A stretch of 61,313 nucleotides of DNA from a virus (taxonomy: Duplodnaviria; Caudoviricetes). The stretch is taken from the IMG/VR virus record IMGVR_UViG_3300046695_000002, positions 1 to 61,313 of that record; one strand, given 5' to 3'. The position numbers and the translations under genes were made by a program. The notes under the pieces are model-generated. The model was not told where the DNA came from. It saw nothing but the letters and a program-made list of their open reading frames with translations, and made no database searches. Below, piece by piece: positions 3,158 to 40,996 of the stretch. Within the stretch, counting starts at the first letter, position 1, and every line of letters begins with the position of its first letter.

Positions 3158-5620
3158 ATGGACGAAACTAGAGCAGTGCCTTTAGGGGGAGCCGGCAATA
3201 ACGTACAGGGCAGAGGCCTGTTAGCTCTAGTGAACGGCGAGCTGAACCCTCCAGACAATATCATCATGACTGTCGAGGCAGCTAGGACCTATCATCGTAA
3301 CTTCCGCCAAGCGCATGTAAAAAGAATTATGTTGATGGCTGCGATCGAAGGCTTGATTGCAGGTAACCCCCCCTATGACCCGGCAGTACTAAAGGCAGCC
3401 GGTTTGTCTCATATAGCTAACGTCAATACGTTAGACGCCAAGGCTATGTACGAAAGAGTGGCGTTGACTTTTTGGAACCTAGTTAATCAAACTGAGAATT
3501 ACGTAGTTTTTGAGATCCACAAGATGAACGATCTTGGCATGGATCATGACTACTCCGGCTGGGCTCAAGTGTTGGCTAAGAATTGGACTAGAGCAGTTAA
3601 AAGGAAATGGAAAGGCTTTATTAAGCAGATGAACATAATGACCGGACAGTTAGTGAAGTTCGGTGTATCACCAGTTGTTTGGTCAGATGAGAGAGACTGT
3701 AGATGGAAGTCAGTAAACTTAAATAAGTTTTATACAGCTGATAGAGCTTGTGTTGATTCCGGCGAGTGGGATTGCATGTGCTTTGAGTCAGTGTTTACTG
3801 TTCAAAGACTGTACGCAATTTATTTGGAAACTAAGAATAAACAAGATTCACCATGGAACAGGGAAGAGTTAGAGAATTTTCTTTTAAAGAAAGCCAATTT
3901 AAGCAGTAAAGGCAGAGATAATAATACCTTTACTGACATGCTTGATTTACAAAAAGCCATTCAGAACCAGTCCTATAATTTTGCCCAGACATTTTCAGAT
4001 TCAGTGTCTTTGGTGTCTTTATTGTACCGGGAGTTTTCAGGAAAAATATCCCATTTTATCTTTGAACCTTTTGGCGATACGAGAGATTTTCTTTGTAAGA
4101 TAGATGAGCAATACGAGAACTTCGAAGAAGCCTTAGTTGTATTTACCTATTCTCCAGGTGAAGAAGAGATTCACGGTAATCGGGGAGTGGGGCATAAGAT
4201 TTATCCGATTTGCCAAGGTGTCATGCAACTTGATTGCCATATGCTAGACGGCGCTAAAATGGCAGCTACTCAAATTATAAGCACGAATGCCACTACTGGC
4301 CGGAACATGGATCCCATCCAAGTTATATCAGGTGTAATAACTGATATCGGCCAGGCTGAGTTGAAGCCCAATACACTAGGGTCAAATTTACCTGGATTAA
4401 TTGAAGTAGCTCAGTATTTCGAAAGTAAAGTAAATAGAAATTCGATTATAGGCGGAGACGATCCTGGAGTACCGGATGGAGATAGGGGCAGTAAGAGTGC
4501 TCCTGAAATTCAAATGCAGTCCATTAAAGAGTTTGGTGTAGGCAAACAAAGTGTGGCTCATTTCTACGAAACGTTTGATGTCGTCTTAGAACAAATGACG
4601 ATAAAGATGATCCATGCCAAGAAAGGCTATCCTTGTTACGACATAGTTAAAGAGTGGAAGAGACTGTGTGAGAAAGACGGTGTACCTACTGAAGTATTCG
4701 ATATTCCCGTAGACACGGCTAATAATGAATTACCTGATCATTTGTCCGTACGGGCAGCCAGGGTAGCCGGAGATGGATCTAATCTTGGTTTAATAATGGG
4801 GTTAAATGGAGTTGCTGGAATTGCTGGAGGATTTCGCCAGAAAGGTCAGTATAACTATAGAAAAGACGTCATTACTTCGCGTCTTGGGGCAGATTACGTA
4901 GATCGTTATCTCTCCGATTCCGCTGAGCCAGATGAATCGGGATCAGGAGCCTCAGTAGCTCATTTAGAAAATCTAGTAATGCGTATGGGCGAGATGCCCC
5001 AAGCCACGCAAGACAATAATCATAAAGTCCATATTGGTTCGCATATGGCCTTTATAAATCAACTGATTCAACAAATTCAAGCTCAGAAAATTGATCCTAT
5101 TGAAGCTGACAAACAACTGTCTGTTGCCATGCCTCATACTGGCGAACATATCGATTTCTTAACTAAAGATATTTTAAATAAATCTTTTATAGAGAAGATT
5201 ACTCCGGCCTGGCGGCAGATAACTAAGTTCGCTCAGTTGAATCGAGTTAAAGCTCAGAAGATGATGCAAGCTGAAGTTAGACGTAGAGCTGACGCCCAGC
5301 AACAAGCAGATGCAGCTACTATTGATCAACAAAGAAAAGATCAAGTAGCTCAAAAAGAACAGCAAAGAAAAGACTTCGAGTCTCAAGCTAAGCAAGATAG
5401 AGCCAAAGAACAATCTCAAACTAAAGCTGACATCATGAAACAGTCAGTTGAAACGAAGGCAGCTAATGAACGGCTGGCTGTTGAATTGAAAGCTCATACT
5501 CAGCAATTAGACGTGATTAAAAAACCTCAAGATATTTTAGCTAATCAGAGTACGGAAAATTTACAGACTAGTTTACAAGATCAAGTAGGGACAACTCCTA
5601 ATCCAGCGGATTTTAAATGA
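3158..5620 (+). CDS. portal protein
   Basis: 820 aa, located between terminase and scaffold/capsid genes; long Q/E/K-rich C-terminal coiled coil as in P22-like portals. Confidence 0.75.
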   Translation: MDETRAVPLGGAGNNVQGRGLLALVNGELNPPDNIIMTVEAARTYHRNFRQAHVKRIMLMAAIEGLIAGNPPYDPAVLKAAGLSHIANVNTLDAKAMYERVALTFWNLVNQTENYVVFEIHKMNDLGMDHDYSGWAQVLAKNWTRAVKRKWKGFIKQMNIMTGQLVKFGVSPVVWSDERDCRWKSVNLNKFYTADRACVDSGEWDCMCFESVFTVQRLYAIYLETKNKQDSPWNREELENFLLKKANLSSKGRDNNTFTDMLDLQKAIQNQSYNFAQTFSDSVSLVSLLYREFSGKISHFIFEPFGDTRDFLCKIDEQYENFEEALVVFTYSPGEEEIHGNRGVGHKIYPICQGVMQLDCHMLDGAKMAATQIISTNATTGRNMDPIQVISGVITDIGQAELKPNTLGSNLPGLIEVAQYFESKVNRNSIIGGDDPGVPDGDRGSKSAPEIQMQSIKEFGVGKQSVAHFYETFDVVLEQMTIKMIHAKKGYPCYDIVKEWKRLCEKDGVPTEVFDIPVDTANNELPDHLSVRAARVAGDGSNLGLIMGLNGVAGIAGGFRQKGQYNYRKDVITSRLGADYVDRYLSDSAEPDESGSGASVAHLENLVMRMGEMPQATQDNNHKVHIGSHMAFINQLIQQIQAQKIDPIEADKQLSVAMPHTGEHIDFLTKDILNKSFIEKITPAWRQITKFAQLNRVKAQKMMQAEVRRRADAQQQADAATIDQQRKDQVAQKEQQRKDFESQAKQDRAKEQSQTKADIMKQSVETKAANERLAVELKAHTQQLDVIKKPQDILANQSTENLQTSLQDQVGTTPNPADFK

Positions 5621-5964
5621 CGATATCAAAAGAAGAATTGAAGAGATGGTTTACTGAAGAAGGTAGGGTAGGGGAATTAAGGACCGGCTTAGAATTCATT
5701 CGCCGATCTGGCGTACTTGATTTACTCAGACGGGCCGGTTTGCCTGTTATTATTAATCAAGGGTCTGATTTAAACGTCATGGCTGGGCAAGCTCATTTCT
5801 CGGCGGGGTATCAGATGGCACTAGATTATCTAGTCAATTTCGAGAAATGGTTTGATACTGATGAAATAAGTGGACTTCTAGGCTCGCCTGATTTTGGAAG
5901 TAAGGAAGAAGCACTTAGGGCCGGTAATTTGAAACCAGAAGATTTTAAAGGTGAATTAACATGA
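5617..5964 (+). CDS. hypothetical head-module protein
   Basis: ATGA overlaps with both the portal and scaffold genes. Confidence 0.7.
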   Translation: MTISKEELKRWFTEEGRVGELRTGLEFIRRSGVLDLLRRAGLPVIINQGSDLNVMAGQAHFSAGYQMALDYLVNFEKWFDTDEISGLLGSPDFGSKEEALRAGNLKPEDFKGELT

Positions 5965-7256
5965 CTATCACGGGCGGTTCTAGTGTCGCCAACATGAGCT
6001 TTATTGCAGATAAGCTGAGTGGCATGGCCAGTCCTTTTGATGCCCCTAAAACGAATGCTGTGCCTCCAGCTCAATCTCAACCTCAAAGCCAGCCCGAAGC
6101 CGCTCCCCGATCTAATCCTTTAATTCAAGGCAATCCTAGCCAAGGCTACGCTGATGCTGTGAAGTCAGTAGATAGACCTAGTATAGAAGTGCCTAGTTTT
6201 CTGGAAGAGGAGCCTAAAGCCCCAGAACCGCCTCCAATCGAAGCTTCCGATCAAGAGCATGACAAGGAACTGCCTTCCGAGGCTTCTATTGAGAACTGGA
6301 ATAAGTTCCGGGAATCTTTAAAAGAACAGCTCAAAGTAAACCGGGAGCTTGAAACTAAGTTTCAAGAGACATCTAAAAAACTAGATAAGTTCGAGAAAGG
6401 TGAAACTGTCCCTGACATCATAAGGGCTAAGGATGAGCGTATTCAGCAGCTGGAACCCTTTGAAAAGATTGTTAGTTTAAAACTTTCACCTGAGTATCAG
6501 GAGAACTTTGTTAAACCAGCTTTAAGCTTGAGAGGCGAGCTTGAGAAGATTGGGCAGGACTATGGTGTGCCTGAAGAGCTCATGCATCAAGCAGTTGGGA
6601 TTGAGAATAGAAAAGAGTTAAATAATTTCTTATCTCAGCATTTTGATGATGTAGGAGGATTAGAGGTAAAGAGGATTGTTACTGAGCTTCAAGATCTAGG
6701 CACTCAAGCCCTAGAAGCCGAGAAAGAACCCGCACAAGCGTTACAGTCTTTAAAAGCGCAGTATCTTGAAAGACAAGAAGAGGAAAAAAGAGAAAGAGCC
6801 CAGACTTTCGAGACGATTGCTAAAGACGCTTGGCAGAATGCTTTGGAGAAAACTAAAGCTGAAGGTGCTTATAAGGAACTAATTCTTCATCCAACGGATA
6901 CTGATTTTAATAAAAAGGTAGTCGAGCCTATTCAGTACCGGGCCTCTGTTCAATACGGGGCCTTGGTCAAGAAACTATCTGAAAATGGGCTAAAGACTTT
7001 ACCCCCTGACTTAGCAGCCGGATTAGCCAGAATGGTTCAGCTATCTATTGGAGGAGCTTTGGTAATGGACGCTAAACGACAAGCTGAGGCTGAACGTAAC
7101 GCCGTGATTCAAAACACAAAAAGAACTAATGGTTATATGCGTCCCACGATTGGAGGGAGTAACGGTTCAGCTCATGAAACTAAAACTCAGGCTCAGCAGC
7201 CTCTTCTAAATCCAAGGACTGCCGCTGAACAAGCCGCTCGGATCTTCAATAAATGA
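5961..7256 (+). CDS. capsid scaffolding protein
   Basis: P/Q/E-rich disordered N-terminus and coiled-coil body; directly precedes the capsid gene. Confidence 0.65.
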   Translation: MTITGGSSVANMSFIADKLSGMASPFDAPKTNAVPPAQSQPQSQPEAAPRSNPLIQGNPSQGYADAVKSVDRPSIEVPSFLEEEPKAPEPPPIEASDQEHDKELPSEASIENWNKFRESLKEQLKVNRELETKFQETSKKLDKFEKGETVPDIIRAKDERIQQLEPFEKIVSLKLSPEYQENFVKPALSLRGELEKIGQDYGVPEELMHQAVGIENRKELNNFLSQHFDDVGGLEVKRIVTELQDLGTQALEAEKEPAQALQSLKAQYLERQEEEKRERAQTFETIAKDAWQNALEKTKAEGAYKELILHPTDTDFNKKVVEPIQYRASVQYGALVKKLSENGLKTLPPDLAAGLARMVQLSIGGALVMDAKRQAEAERNAVIQNTKRTNGYMRPTIGGSNGSAHETKTQAQQPLLNPRTAAEQAARIFNK

Positions 7257-35532: not shown

Positions 35533-35625
35533 CTACTGATTCTTCTTTTCCTTATCGCCTTTTAGCTTACCTTTAGGCTTCTTTTTTATAACTACGATTG
35601 GTTTTTTAATCTTTGGGCTTTTCAT
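35533..35625 (-). CDS. 30-aa Lys-rich microprotein
   Basis: Own translation: MKSPKIKKPIVVIKKKPKGKLKGDKEKKNQ; RBS AAGGA. Confidence 0.45.
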   Translation of the reverse strand: MKSPKIKKPIVVIKKKPKGKLKGDKEKKNQ

Positions 35626-35785
35626 CTGAATTCCTTTTAGCAGCTTCTATTACGTCTTTAACGCCTAGTAAAAATACGTCGCCACCTTCTTTAATACAAG
35701 CTAGCAAGTAGCCGGCGGCATATTCAGGATCTTTAAGCCGCTCCAAAAGATCTTCTTTATACTCCAATTCTTGAGTCTGGCTCAC
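35606..35785 (-). CDS. truncated HI1420-family (addiction module antidote) antitoxin-like protein lacking the HTH
   Basis: Own translation (GTG start, RBS AAGGTG): MSQTQELEYKEDLLERLKDPEYAAGYLLACIKEGGDVFLLGVKDVIEAAKRNSDEKPKD. Confidence 0.7.
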   Translation of the reverse strand: MSQTQELEYKEDLLERLKDPEYAAGYLLACIKEGGDVFLLGVKDVIEAAKRNSDEKPKD

Positions 35786-35800
35786 GGTGGTACACCTTAA

Positions 35801-37960: not shown

Positions 37961-38407
37961 TTAGTGATTGTCCTTAATAAAGAGAGCTAAGCATAAGGCA
38001 TCTATGATGCCTTCATTTTTCTTTTTATTCTTTGTCAGGAGAATTCCTGGATATCTTCTGCGTATATAGTCCGCTGCTCTTAATTTTGATTCACCTTTAG
38101 GAAAAGATCCTAAGATAGACTGCCATTTGGCGGGAGAAACTAAGATAAAAGGCACTTGAAGATATTCTAGTAAAGATTCCAGAGCACCTACTGCTTTACC
38201 AAATTGAAATACCGAAACCACACCCTGTCCTGGACGAGAGCTGACTTTCTCAAGAGCTGCAACTGAGTCTTCTCTGTACTCAGCTAATATGTTTCCAATT
38301 GGTTTCCAGCTACCTTGAAAACACAGATACTGAACAAGCTCTCCGTCACTCCCTACAATAGCTACCGCTCCGTGTGCCCCAGGGTCCAAACCGATATAGT
38401 ATTTCAC
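37961..38407 (-). CDS. RuvC-like Holliday junction resolvase
   Basis: IGLDPG..GA, ALEKV, F.FG...G, P..W and DALCLA motifs. Confidence 0.85.
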   Translation of the reverse strand: MKYYIGLDPGAHGAVAIVGSDGELVQYLCFQGSWKPIGNILAEYREDSVAALEKVSSRPGQGVVSVFQFGKAVGALESLLEYLQVPFILVSPAKWQSILGSFPKGESKLRAADYIRRRYPGILLTKNKKKNEGIIDALCLALFIKDNH

Positions 38408-39186
38408 TTCAGAGCTTCTTTTATTGTCCAGCCTCTGCGTAATCGGTACTCTAAAGTACTAGGGTTCAAGTTCAACTTTCTTGCCCACTCAGTTACGGAT
38501 AATGTGTCGCCCGCATAAGTTATATGCTTGGGTAGTTTAATCTTCGGCACCTTCGCAGGTGTAGCTAGTATTTTATCGATAGGCCAATGAGCTTGGTAAT
38601 ATCGGTATTCTAATGTTTTGACATTTATACCTATACGTCTAGACCACTCAGCTAGTGTAAGCGTCTCTCCCCCGTATGTTAGTTTATTATTATTTCTTTT
38701 GTTATGGGCCTGTTCGGCGCCGGTGGTCCATCTACAGTTTTCTTTAAAGTAGCCTTTCTCGTTGTCAATGCGATCTATAGATAGTCCAGCAGGCTTTTCT
38801 CCCATATCGTGTAAAAATACATCAAAACTTTTAGACCATTCTTCGCATATATTAATTCCTCGGCCCCCGTAGTTCTGATAACTAGGGCTATTTTTATTTT
38901 CTGTGCGTTGTTTCATTGCAGCCCATGTACTGTACGTAGAAGACGCCGGGATGTTATGTCGTTTAGAATGTCCATGACGTAATCGTATCTCATACCTACG
39001 TTCCTTTAAATAACAGCCGCAAGACGTAGTTAATCCTTTTCTTAAAGCTCTTGAGTAAAAAGAACCTTCACTGCCGCAATCACAAGTACAACACCATTTG
39101 GCGTCAGACTTTACTGATTTGTCAAAAGCAATCACAGTGAGCCTGCCAAAGCGTTGTCCGGTTATATCTATTTTAGTTCTTGGCAT
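38404..39186 (-). CDS. free-standing HNH homing endonuclease
   Basis: DITGQRFGRLTV, CTCDCG, SCGC, YGGRGI..C..W, SIDRIDN.KGY...NCRW; start re-called to MPRTK. Confidence 0.85.
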   Translation of the reverse strand: MPRTKIDITGQRFGRLTVIAFDKSVKSDAKWCCTCDCGSEGSFYSRALRKGLTTSCGCYLKERRYEIRLRHGHSKRHNIPASSTYSTWAAMKQRTENKNSPSYQNYGGRGINICEEWSKSFDVFLHDMGEKPAGLSIDRIDNEKGYFKENCRWTTGAEQAHNKRNNNKLTYGGETLTLAEWSRRIGINVKTLEYRYYQAHWPIDKILATPAKVPKIKLPKHITYAGDTLSVTEWARKLNLNPSTLEYRLRRGWTIKEALK

Positions 39187-40996
39187 CTGCCCACGAAGCT
39201 CCATTGGAGGGTTCTACTAGCTTGTTTAGGGTTCGCGCATGCGGCACTAATTCAGTATAGGCTTCAGTCATTGCCTTAGTTATCCTCTTTGTAACCTCTT
39301 CTACATCCGGTCCTTTAGCTTCCACTACTATTTCATCGTGTACAGAAAGAAGCATACGGGCAGAGGTATCTTGAAGTGTTTGCTTAGTTTTAAGCAAAGC
39401 CAGTAACATCGCCTCAGCGCAGCCGGCCTGCACAGGCATGTTGAGCGCAGCTCCAAAATATGTTTCTTCGGTTAACTTCCGGCTTTTGCCCATAGGAGAG
39501 TAAGCAGTGTAGCGACGTAAAGGGCACGTCTCTATTTGTTCTAGTTGCCACCTACGTAATCCACTATACAGGTTACGGTAGCCCGAAATAAGATCCTTAG
39601 ATTCTTCTTCTGTAACCTCAACTCCGTAACCTTTTTTTGCATGCTTTGAGAACTTTTTGTAAGACAAGCCATAGGACAAGCCGAGCGCTAAACTTTTACC
39701 AATCTGCCTTTCTTCTTTCGTAACTTGCTCAATAGATTTATGCAGGATATTAGCTACGGTGTACTTGTAGATATCAAGTCCTTGCTCAAACGCTCGCAGC
39801 ATCCTTTCATCTTGAGATAGCTCGGCTATATAGCGAATTTCCACGGCACTGTAGTCTGCTACAACCATCACATAACCTGGTGAAGGTACGAATATAGATC
39901 GTATTTCTTTACTGCGAGGCATTTGAGTTAAGTTTGGCTCAGAACAAGATAATCTTCCAGTACGAGCCCCGGCTACTCTATAACTACAGTGGATCTTGCC
40001 TGTTGCAGGATTAACCTTAGACAATAGATTCATCCCGAATGAAGTGGTGAGTTTTTGGAGTTTCTTGTAGCGAGAAAAAGGTTTTACGATTTCAAGATAA
40101 TCAAAATCAGAAAAAGTATCAGCACTAGTAGAAAGTCTTTCACCACTTTCAGTACATGGCCAAATACTTAAAGTTTCATGAGGAAGAGAATCCTCTAACC
40201 ACTTAGCTACTTTCGCATCAGTGATCTGTTTAAGGCCGGTTAGGTTAAGAACTTCATCGGCAGCGTCTTTTAGCTCCTCTCTCCAACGAATGACATTAAT
40301 ACGATGCTGCTTTTCATCGACAGTTATTCCGTTTAATTCCATCTCTGAAATAACTAGCTGAGCTTTTCTGTACAAATCATACACCTTTCTTAGTTTGAGT
40401 TTATCGATATAATCACTAAGCTTTTTATAGAGCTCCATGAGAACTATTACGTCCATGGCAGCGTATTTAATTTGCTCAAAGGTAAGATCAGGAATAGACC
40501 AGTCAGTTACGCCGGCCTTTTTATTGATCTCTTCACCAAAGAAAGCTTTGATCACAGAGCCTAAGTCAGCTTTCTTATCCTCTGGAAAGATGGCATGAAA
40601 GACCATGCGAGCCATGATGCAAGTACAGTGCAAGTCAGGTGTTGCGACATTGTGATGAACTTTAAGTTGCTTAAAGTCAAACGTAGCGTTATGGAAGACA
40701 GACGGACGGTTATGAAACAATGGAGCCAGATCGAGAGGACCAGTGGCAAATAGGTCCATGACTACAGCACCCGTGCCTGTAAAAAGCTGTAGTAATCTAG
40801 GACGAGCCAGGAAAGGCGAAAGAGCAGCTCTACCAATATGCTTCCATTCTGGTAGAGCCGCAGTTTCTAGGTCAGCTGCAAAGACAGTTTCTTTCTGAAC
40901 GAGTTGATCAATGACTTCTAAAGCTCTTTTCCTGGAAGAGACGTAGAAACAAGGGTAAGATTTTTCCTGAAAACTGACAGTGAACTGGTCAATCAT
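39173..40996 (-). CDS. polA: family A DNA polymerase with 3'-5' exonuclease
   Basis: Exonuclease motifs DLET, HNATFD and YAAMD; TGRLS..PN; motif A DYSAVEIR; motif B RQIGKSLALGLSYG; motif C VHDE. Confidence 0.95.
   Translation of the reverse strand: MIDQFTVSFQEKSYPCFYVSSRKRALEVIDQLVQKETVFAADLETAALPEWKHIGRAALSPFLARPRLLQLFTGTGAVVMDLFATGPLDLAPLFHNRPSVFHNATFDFKQLKVHHNVATPDLHCTCIMARMVFHAIFPEDKKADLGSVIKAFFGEEINKKAGVTDWSIPDLTFEQIKYAAMDVIVLMELYKKLSDYIDKLKLRKVYDLYRKAQLVISEMELNGITVDEKQHRINVIRWREELKDAADEVLNLTGLKQITDAKVAKWLEDSLPHETLSIWPCTESGERLSTSADTFSDFDYLEIVKPFSRYKKLQKLTTSFGMNLLSKVNPATGKIHCSYRVAGARTGRLSCSEPNLTQMPRSKEIRSIFVPSPGYVMVVADYSAVEIRYIAELSQDERMLRAFEQGLDIYKYTVANILHKSIEQVTKEERQIGKSLALGLSYGLSYKKFSKHAKKGYGVEVTEEESKDLISGYRNLYSGLRRWQLEQIETCPLRRYTAYSPMGKSRKLTEETYFGAALNMPVQAGCAEAMLLALLKTKQTLQDTSARMLLSVHDEIVVEAKGPDVEEVTKRITKAMTEAYTELVPHARTLNKLVEPSNGASWADAKN

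Follow-up and report, generated by a model that had tools for sequence, protein, structure and literature searches.

An orphan N-terminal module of an HI1420-type antitoxin in a bacteriophage genome, a candidate toxin sponge

We found that a small gene of a bacteriophage, ORF59 (Table 1), encodes the N-terminal module of an HI1420/TIGR02684-type antitoxin standing alone, in a genome in which we detected neither the HTH half of such an antitoxin nor a gene for the cognate toxin. We tentatively read its product, while stopping short of calling this probable, as a monomeric toxin sponge, that is, a domain-minimised orphan antitoxin. The window, i.e. the whole stretch of DNA analysed here, is the entire virus record of 61,313 nt, which CheckV rated as 97% complete and classed as linear. 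The phage looks lytic, with T7-like replication genes. It encodes a DNA polymerase, a helicase, a primase, an exonuclease, a Gp2.5-like SSB and a RuvC-like resolvase, and no integrase was found among the 26 phage proteins scanned against PHROGs.

Table 1. Positions of ORF59, its parts and signals, and the neighbouring genes discussed in the text (window coordinates).
Feature	Position	Strand	Description
ORF59	35606..35785	-	59 aa; N-terminal module of an HI1420/TIGR02684-type (HigA-like) antitoxin, standing alone; coordinates include the stop codon
Conserved N-module core, residues 9-48	35642..35761	-	25 of 29 conserved columns show the consensus residue; site of most modelled toxin contacts
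Tail, residues 49-59 (AKRNSDEKPKD)	35609..35641	-	unrelated to the antitoxin family; low pLDDT at the end
Shine-Dalgarno-like AAGGTG	35793..35798	-	7 nt 5' of the ORF59 GTG; read from the sequence
Lys-rich ORF, 30 aa	35533..35625	-	+1 frame; own AAGGA RBS; overlaps the last 20 nt of ORF59
Upstream neighbour, 107 aa	35801..36124	-	weak YdaS/Cro-like HTH; 35% identical in L023; context
Small Cys-rich protein, 46 aa	36125-36265	-	hydrophobic N-terminus, PPI repeat, 6 Cys; in L023 at 5326-5475 (+), 49 aa
HNH endonuclease gene	38404-39204	-	matches phrog_374 at E 5e-65; overlap with the 3' end of the DNA polymerase gene (39173-40996)

We first located the gene itself. An earlier reading of the bare sequence, hereafter the original prediction, had described a 59-aa ORF with an RBS at this place, and such an ORF was indeed found, with a GTG start, a Shine-Dalgarno-like motif and the translation MSQTQELEYKEDLLERLKDPEYAAGYLLACIKEGGDVFLLGVKDVIEAAKRNSDEKPKD. 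The GTG lies 15 nt past the stop codon of the upstream 107-aa gene, and ORF59 is the last sizeable gene of a leftward operon, with a gap of only 73 nt between its stop codon and the end of the convergent 1637-aa gene. A promoter/terminator scan found no terminator-like site near ORF59, and the RNA fold of its 3' region gave a z-score of +1.2.

We then searched protein databases with ORF59. A search of 1.84 billion representative proteins returned 135 matches at E<=1e-3, the best full-length one of which, P0007, was 67% identical over residues 8-49 (E 1.5e-9). Furthermore, phmmer against 5.8 billion proteins returned four PF21716 proteins of 97-100 aa, annotated as 'probable addiction module antidote protein', with 59-60% identity (E 1.3e-7 to 1.2e-4). 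The homology is thus clear: ORF59 residues ~8-48 are 57-67% identical to the N-terminal halves of antitoxins of 97-105 aa. The alignment ends where the HTH of the relatives begins, 11 residues before the ORF59 stop, where the original prediction had counted about 10.

ORF59 itself is missed by the curated HMMs. The NCBIfam HMMs, including TIGR02684, and the Pfam HMMs, including PF21716, found nothing in ORF59 even at E<=10, so that the direct TIGR02684/HI1420 search which the original prediction had proposed as its check returned no match. A PF21716 search of the whole virus record was also blank, the PADLOC HMMs gave no match to ORF59, and PHROGs gave only phrog_4268, 'transcriptional repressor' (E 0.35; ORF59 residues 10-45 on positions 7-43 of the 96 of the profile). 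The relatives of ORF59, on the other hand, score 61-68 bits on PF21716; at one of their loci, L005, the antitoxin reaches 54.9 bits on TIGR02684 (cut-off 53.7) and the adjoining toxin 99.2 bits on TIGR02683 (cut-off 62.85). Since the curated HMMs miss ORF59 while its relatives pass them, the family assignment of ORF59 rests on these relatives, and by this route the HI1420/TIGR02684 type, which the original prediction had named from recall, was borne out. ORF59 is therefore a homologue, and not a member, of TIGR02684/PF21716. It carries one of the four defining features, the N-terminal helical module with the motif Y-x3-L-x3-L-x-D-P-x-Y-A-x-x-Y-L ... F-L-L-x-L-x-D-V-x-E-A, and lacks the other three, namely a score at the curated HMM cut-off, the XRE-type HTH with the terminal strand, and a TIGR02683/PF05973 toxin directly upstream.

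Two groups of matches were set aside. The PDB sequence matches of ORF59 to de novo TIM barrels were repeat-like and judged spurious; a PDB search with a profile of the full-length relatives gave unrelated reductases at best (E 0.02). The second-best match among the representative proteins, the 3294-aa P0006 (E 1.8e-15), contains five stretches that match ORF59 residues 27-54. The N-module HMM finds no module in it, and the stretches look more like a repeated generic helix-turn motif, as in the TIM-barrel matches, than like homology.

We then investigated the loci of the relatives by scanning contigs with ORF59, which yielded 22 loci from metagenome contigs and 14 from genome contigs. An HTH follows the N-module in all 21 evaluable metagenome ORFs, that of L022 being cut inside the N-module by the contig end. 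A full-length toxin-like ORF (~107-122 aa) lies directly upstream in 15 of the 22 metagenome loci, and 11 of these 15 ORFs match PF05973 at E<=1e-3; by eye, the remaining loci comprise four with partial or split toxin ORFs and three without. As for the genome loci, 13 of 14 have a toxin-HMM match directly upstream and 10 of 14 a strong HTH, whereas the C-terminus is divergent in L038 and the gene of L036 seems to be broken. Judged from their sequences, the relatives are real TA pairs. Five genome loci (L025, L027, L028, L032 and L033) belong to Bdellovibrionota/Bdellovibrionales MAGs, with a GC of 0.49-0.57 against 0.42 for the phage; the others come from Acidobacteriota-type, Binatia, Pseudomonadota, Verrucomicrobiota and Oscillatoria genomes. 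That 5 of the 14 closest genomic relatives fall in Bdellovibrionota/Bdellovibrionales provides a weak lead to the host or donor.

A few relatives lack the HTH helices while keeping the N-module and the C-terminal strand: the ORFs at 2935-3234 of L026 and 339-596 of L034, and the proteins P0011, P0025, P0055, P0061 and P0105. The L034 variant (85 aa) adjoins an intact 113-aa toxin, which indicates that the HTH is dispensable in nature, and such variants may be autoregulation-free antitoxins.

To follow the missing parts through the phage genome, we used 14 full-length relatives to build one HMM of the N-half and one of the C-half (HTH), and 15 neighbouring toxins to build a toxin HMM. As a result, ORF59 was the sole match of the N-half HMM in the six frames of the window (77.2-77.4 bits). 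The C-half HMM did not match ORF59 and reached only E 0.24 at best in the six frames, the toxin HMM only E 4.4, and the PF05973 search of the whole virus record was blank. The two other frames 3' of ORF59 are full of stops. Since no frame of the window holds any HTH similarity, the truncation is a clean one, in which the HTH was removed outright and not by a nonsense or frameshift mutation. The original prediction had seen no HTH, frameshifted or otherwise, downstream of ORF59 and no toxin gene in the genome, and both statements hold in this 97% complete record, so that ORF59 is an orphan, an antitoxin-derived gene on a virus genome without the cognate toxin. Two further ideas were considered. 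The 107-aa upstream gene was rejected as a cryptic toxin, as it shows no similarity to the toxin HMM, has a weak Cro/YdaS-like HTH and is kept in the related phage L023, which has no ORF59. A +1 frameshift at CCC AAA G that would fuse ORF59 to the Lys-rich ORF is possible in principle, and nothing supports it.

Next, we modelled the structure of ORF59 and its binding to a toxin. AlphaFold2, with a 91-sequence alignment, predicted helices at residues 2-16, 20-33 and 35-54 (mean pLDDT 84.7, pTM 0.65; mean pLDDT 92-97 in the 10-residue blocks over residues 11-50), so that the module would fold autonomously. For the complex, ORF59 (alignment A8) was paired with the L005 toxin (alignment A6), a stand-in taken from a relative and not the toxin of the host, whose cognate antitoxin is 59% identical to ORF59 over residues 8-52. 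This modelling, which the original prediction had suggested for HI1419-type toxins, gave an ipSAE of 0.84 (runs 0.85, 0.81 and 0.84), against 0.01 for the best of three controls, with a partner pLDDT of at least 84 and a contact agreement between runs of at least 85%. Of 80 solved complexes, 58 reach the ipSAE mark applied here, and so do 2 of 110 mismatched pairs; these counts serve as a rough guide only, since we used our own alignments. In the model, ORF59 residues 4-10 pair with toxin residues 9-13, and the helices pack on toxin residues 30-47. The confident contacts comprise ORF59 residues 4-10, 12-13, 16, 22, 25-26, 28-30, 32-34, 36-37, 40-41 and 44, and toxin residues 6, 9-13, 19-25, 30-47, 82-83, 106 and 109.

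These contacts agree with what is described for solved HigBA complexes. In Streptococcus pneumoniae HigBA (PDB 6AF3/6AF4), HigA binds HigB through b1-a1-a2 (residues 6-42) in a 'crossed-scissor' manner: the two N-terminal strands pair with each other, and a1/a2 of one protein pack against a1/a2 of the other. The HTH of HigA consists of a3-a4, and its dimerisation goes through the C-terminal strand (PMC7984235). Similarly, most toxin contacts of Vibrio cholerae HigA2 are made by residues 1-37, and truncated HigA2 variants were designed and titrated into HigB2 by ITC (PMC8438204). The full-length relatives of ORF59 share the SpHigA/VcHigA2 layout, an N-terminal toxin-binding segment followed by an HTH and a C-terminal element, whereas ORF59 is the binding segment alone. 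The sequence relation of the relatives to solved HigA is marginal, as the full-length profile meets 6af3_B at E 0.09, and in the HTH part only. The model thus supports the view that ORF59 keeps the binding surface of the family and would bind the L005 toxin. Since the model resembles the SpHigBA interface, its good score may partly reflect likeness to solved HigBA complexes. The original prediction had offered a toxin-binding or a dimerisation module. The former agrees with modelled contacts that all fall in residues 4-44 and with the SpHigBA analogy, and the latter does not fit, since SpHigA dimerises through the C-terminal strand that ORF59 lacks.

We accordingly outline the toxin sponge as a working scheme. 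The phage would have acquired the N-module alone, leaving behind the HTH, the C-terminal dimerisation strand and the toxin gene, and would make ORF59 from its early/middle leftward operon. The product would capture HI1419/TIGR02683-type toxins of the RelE/ParE superfamily, belonging either to the host or to a resident mobile element, from the point in infection at which the supply of the labile host antitoxin stops, and this capture would keep translation running for the phage. Expression, neutralisation and a benefit to the phage are thus presumed steps of the scheme, and its anti-defence role is one that we only infer. PADLOC has no models for the HI1419/HI1420-type TA pair, and in this respect the family is not known to defend against phages. 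Furthermore, in the SpHigBA complex the active site of the toxin is left uncovered by the antitoxin (PMC7984235), so that a small monomeric ORF59 might bind without neutralising.

ORF59 shares its N-module and motif with the HI1420-type antidotes (TIGR02684/PF21716), the partners of HI1419-type toxins (TIGR02683/PF05973 Gp49-like, RelE/ParE superfamily). It differs from them in lacking the XRE-type HTH, the C-terminal strand and the adjacent toxin, and in being encoded by a phage with its own replication genes. By analogy, ORF59 would work most like the orphan antitoxins of phages and plasmids. The DarG-like proteins of T4-like phages (PMC11825919) and the orphan antitoxins of plasmid leading regions (PMC11541004) are likewise encoded without a toxin on a mobile element. 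They are whole enzymes or whole antitoxins, whereas ORF59 is a domain-minimised type II fragment, and the TA system targeted by the DarG-like proteins is a demonstrated defence, whereas the family presumably targeted by ORF59 has no demonstrated anti-phage role. Our searches of the literature on HI1419/HI1420, orphan antitoxins and phage counter-defense brought up no account of a phage with an HI1420-type module that lacks the HTH.

The alternative that survives best, which we consider somewhat unlikely, is an inert capture remnant: an antitoxin gene of the host or of a prophage would have lost its 5' half, by illegitimate recombination, to the site that separates the 107-aa HTH gene from the Lys-rich gene. 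There the frame would by chance stay open up to a stop within the start region of the next gene, and the product would have no role. We compared the phage with L023, a 32-kb IMG/VR contig and the only detectable relative phage, whose counterpart of the 358-aa neighbour shares 49% identity with it. Scanning with the 107-aa neighbour, singly or in alignment A5, again led to L023 only, and Megablast of 20 kb of the window against phages gave no match. The two phages are syntenic from the DNA polymerase through to the convergent tail gene, and both the 107-aa HTH gene and the small Cys-rich gene lie in this shared stretch. L023 has no N-module in any frame, and at the position of ORF59 it carries a 115-aa Lys/Ala-rich, histone-H1-like gene (5804-6151, +). 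Equally truncated homologues, for which the original prediction had advised a search in phages, were not found either, as tblastn of ORF59 against 50,697 phage records gave only noise (E=9) and IMG/VR scans with ORF59 and with alignment A3 gave no confirmed relatives. Its description of the module as phage-kept is hence not borne out by either comparison, and both count in favour of a remnant. Even full-length family members are rare in sequenced phages, with three records, Brucella phage BiPBO1 (twice) and Pasteurella phage Pm86.

The junction also speaks for a remnant. The unrelated tail of ORF59 is encoded by the DNA in which the next small ORF has its RBS and start, as a chance junction predicts. 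From this tail, together with the Lys/Ala-rich gene at the corresponding position of L023, we infer that the 5' half of an antitoxin gene was inserted between two resident genes, its frame running to the first stop; the Lys-rich ORF probably marks the downstream edge of the captured segment. In addition, among 35 relatives with DNA-verified ORF ends, 31 have a full HTH, two lack the HTH helices only, one has a divergent C-terminus and one is broken, so that the architecture of ORF59, the N-module only, occurs in none of them. Since 175 of the 7692 stop-to-stop segments in the window reach at least 64 codons, the length of the open frame alone is within chance; it is the homology that goes beyond chance. 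At this composition, an open frame of 64 codons has a chance probability of ~0.018 per site, so that short frames of this kind can persist.

The state of the module, however, argues against an inert remnant. The N-module is well conserved in ORF59: its 77.4 bits on the N-module HMM exceed the scores of 29 of the 36 antitoxin ORFs at the loci (range 46.7-84.1, median 67.0), and it has the consensus residue in 25 of the 32 columns with at least 50% consensus (Table 1 gives the count within positions 9-48). The RBS and its spacing are intact, and the cut falls after a complete predicted three-helix unit. The same end is found on a second contig: P0001 (46 aa, on a 915-nt contig), the only second copy, is 98% identical to ORF59, with one residue differing. 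Furthermore, the GC of ORF59 is 0.406 and its GC3 0.333, against phage gene means of 0.421 and 0.347 (n=48 genes), whereas the N-module DNA of the relatives has a mean GC of 0.50 (range 0.35-0.64). A composition that is that of the phage, unlike the mean of the relatives, argues for a time of residence without decay; a recent capture from a low-GC donor is also possible. Taken as sequence evidence, preservation and composition mildly favour retention over decay.

We also asked how often the N-module ends a protein elsewhere, and classed 140 sequences, ORF59 and 139 proteins. As a result, 47 have an HTH, 56 (including ORF59 and P0001) end no more than 25 residues past the N-module, another 36 continue into longer tails in which no HTH is intact, many of them frameshifted-looking, and one (P0006) has no N-module. 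Some of the short N-module proteins could be genes cut by contig ends. Several were found on long or repeated contigs: the 57-aa P0017 on three contigs (longest 70 kb), the 62-aa P0054 on a 221-kb contig, P0019, P0077 and P0116 on contigs of 21-28 kb, the 73-aa P0010 on four contigs (longest 39 kb) and the 111-aa P0016 on two (longest 61 kb), and the P0033 cluster has three members, each of 56 aa. The ESM Atlas contains clusters with representatives of ~60 aa, partly PF21716-positive, and in one such cluster the commonest known phylum is Uroviricota, which we take as a lead only. For this HTH-less subgroup, tblastn searches of phages with P0016 and of plasmids with P0010 gave no match, a genome-contig scan with alignment A7 found nothing, and an IMG/VR scan with alignment A9 gave no confirmed relatives.

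A re-purposed helical module, which would work with a non-TA partner, for example a protein of the phage or of the host, or together with the 107-aa HTH protein encoded next to it, seems improbable to us. The N-module does occur in other contexts, as P0016, P0060, P0078 and P0106 carry it behind long unrelated N-terminal extensions or before other C-terminal tails, which suggests a portable module. ORF59 also lies directly downstream of the Cro/YdaS-like HTH gene, and its fold has no specific neighbour, as Foldseek of the ORF59 model against the PDB gave no match at E<=1e-3. However, the 107-aa neighbour is kept in L023 without ORF59, the modelled toxin-interface residues are the conserved ones of the family, and no result points to another partner.

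Least probable, with only a slight chance in our estimate, is a deregulator of TA modules: ORF59 would compete with the host antitoxin for the toxin and derepress or destabilise a TA module of the host or of a rival element, for example displacing a competing prophage or plasmid, through a changed toxin:antitoxin stoichiometry, since it can neither dimerise nor bind the operator. Its predicted binding surface is that of the full antitoxin without the HTH and the C-terminal strand, peptides that mimic the helices of the binding region disrupted SpHigBA and raised RNase activity (PMC7984235), and plasmid orphan antitoxins are proposed to act against competing mobile elements (PMC11541004), but an mRNA interferase set free during infection would normally harm the phage.

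Returning to the toxin sponge, a much wider version can be formulated, which we regard as speculative and rather unlikely as a whole: the DNA-binding-free monomeric N-module would be a distinct phage 'toxin sponge', the widespread HI1419/HI1420 modules would be abortive-infection defences that put phages under pressure to disarm them, and the many metagenomic 55-70-aa N-module-only proteins would form a dispersed family of sponges on mobile elements. Should ORF59 prove to neutralise a toxin of the RelE/ParE type, it would be a natural toxin binder of minimal size (~45 residues). It would then be a phage counter-measure against a type II TA family that is very common and has no assigned function, it would make a phage-defence role of the HI1419/HI1420 modules directly testable with one small gene, and it would mean that phages take antitoxin domains apart, keeping neutralisation and discarding autoregulation. 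If it is a remnant only, ORF59 records how phages sample host TA genes.

Finally, three other features of the window were observed. The small Cys-rich protein encoded upstream of the 107-aa gene may be a lipoprotein-like lysis or exclusion factor. The HNH endonuclease gene may be a mobile homing endonuclease insertion, since L023 has no separate ORF there. At the left end, positions 1-196 form a perfect tandem array of a 69-bp unit (2.8 copies, 100% matches), which may be a repeat connected with the genome terminus or with packaging, or may stem from the assembly of the 'linear' record.
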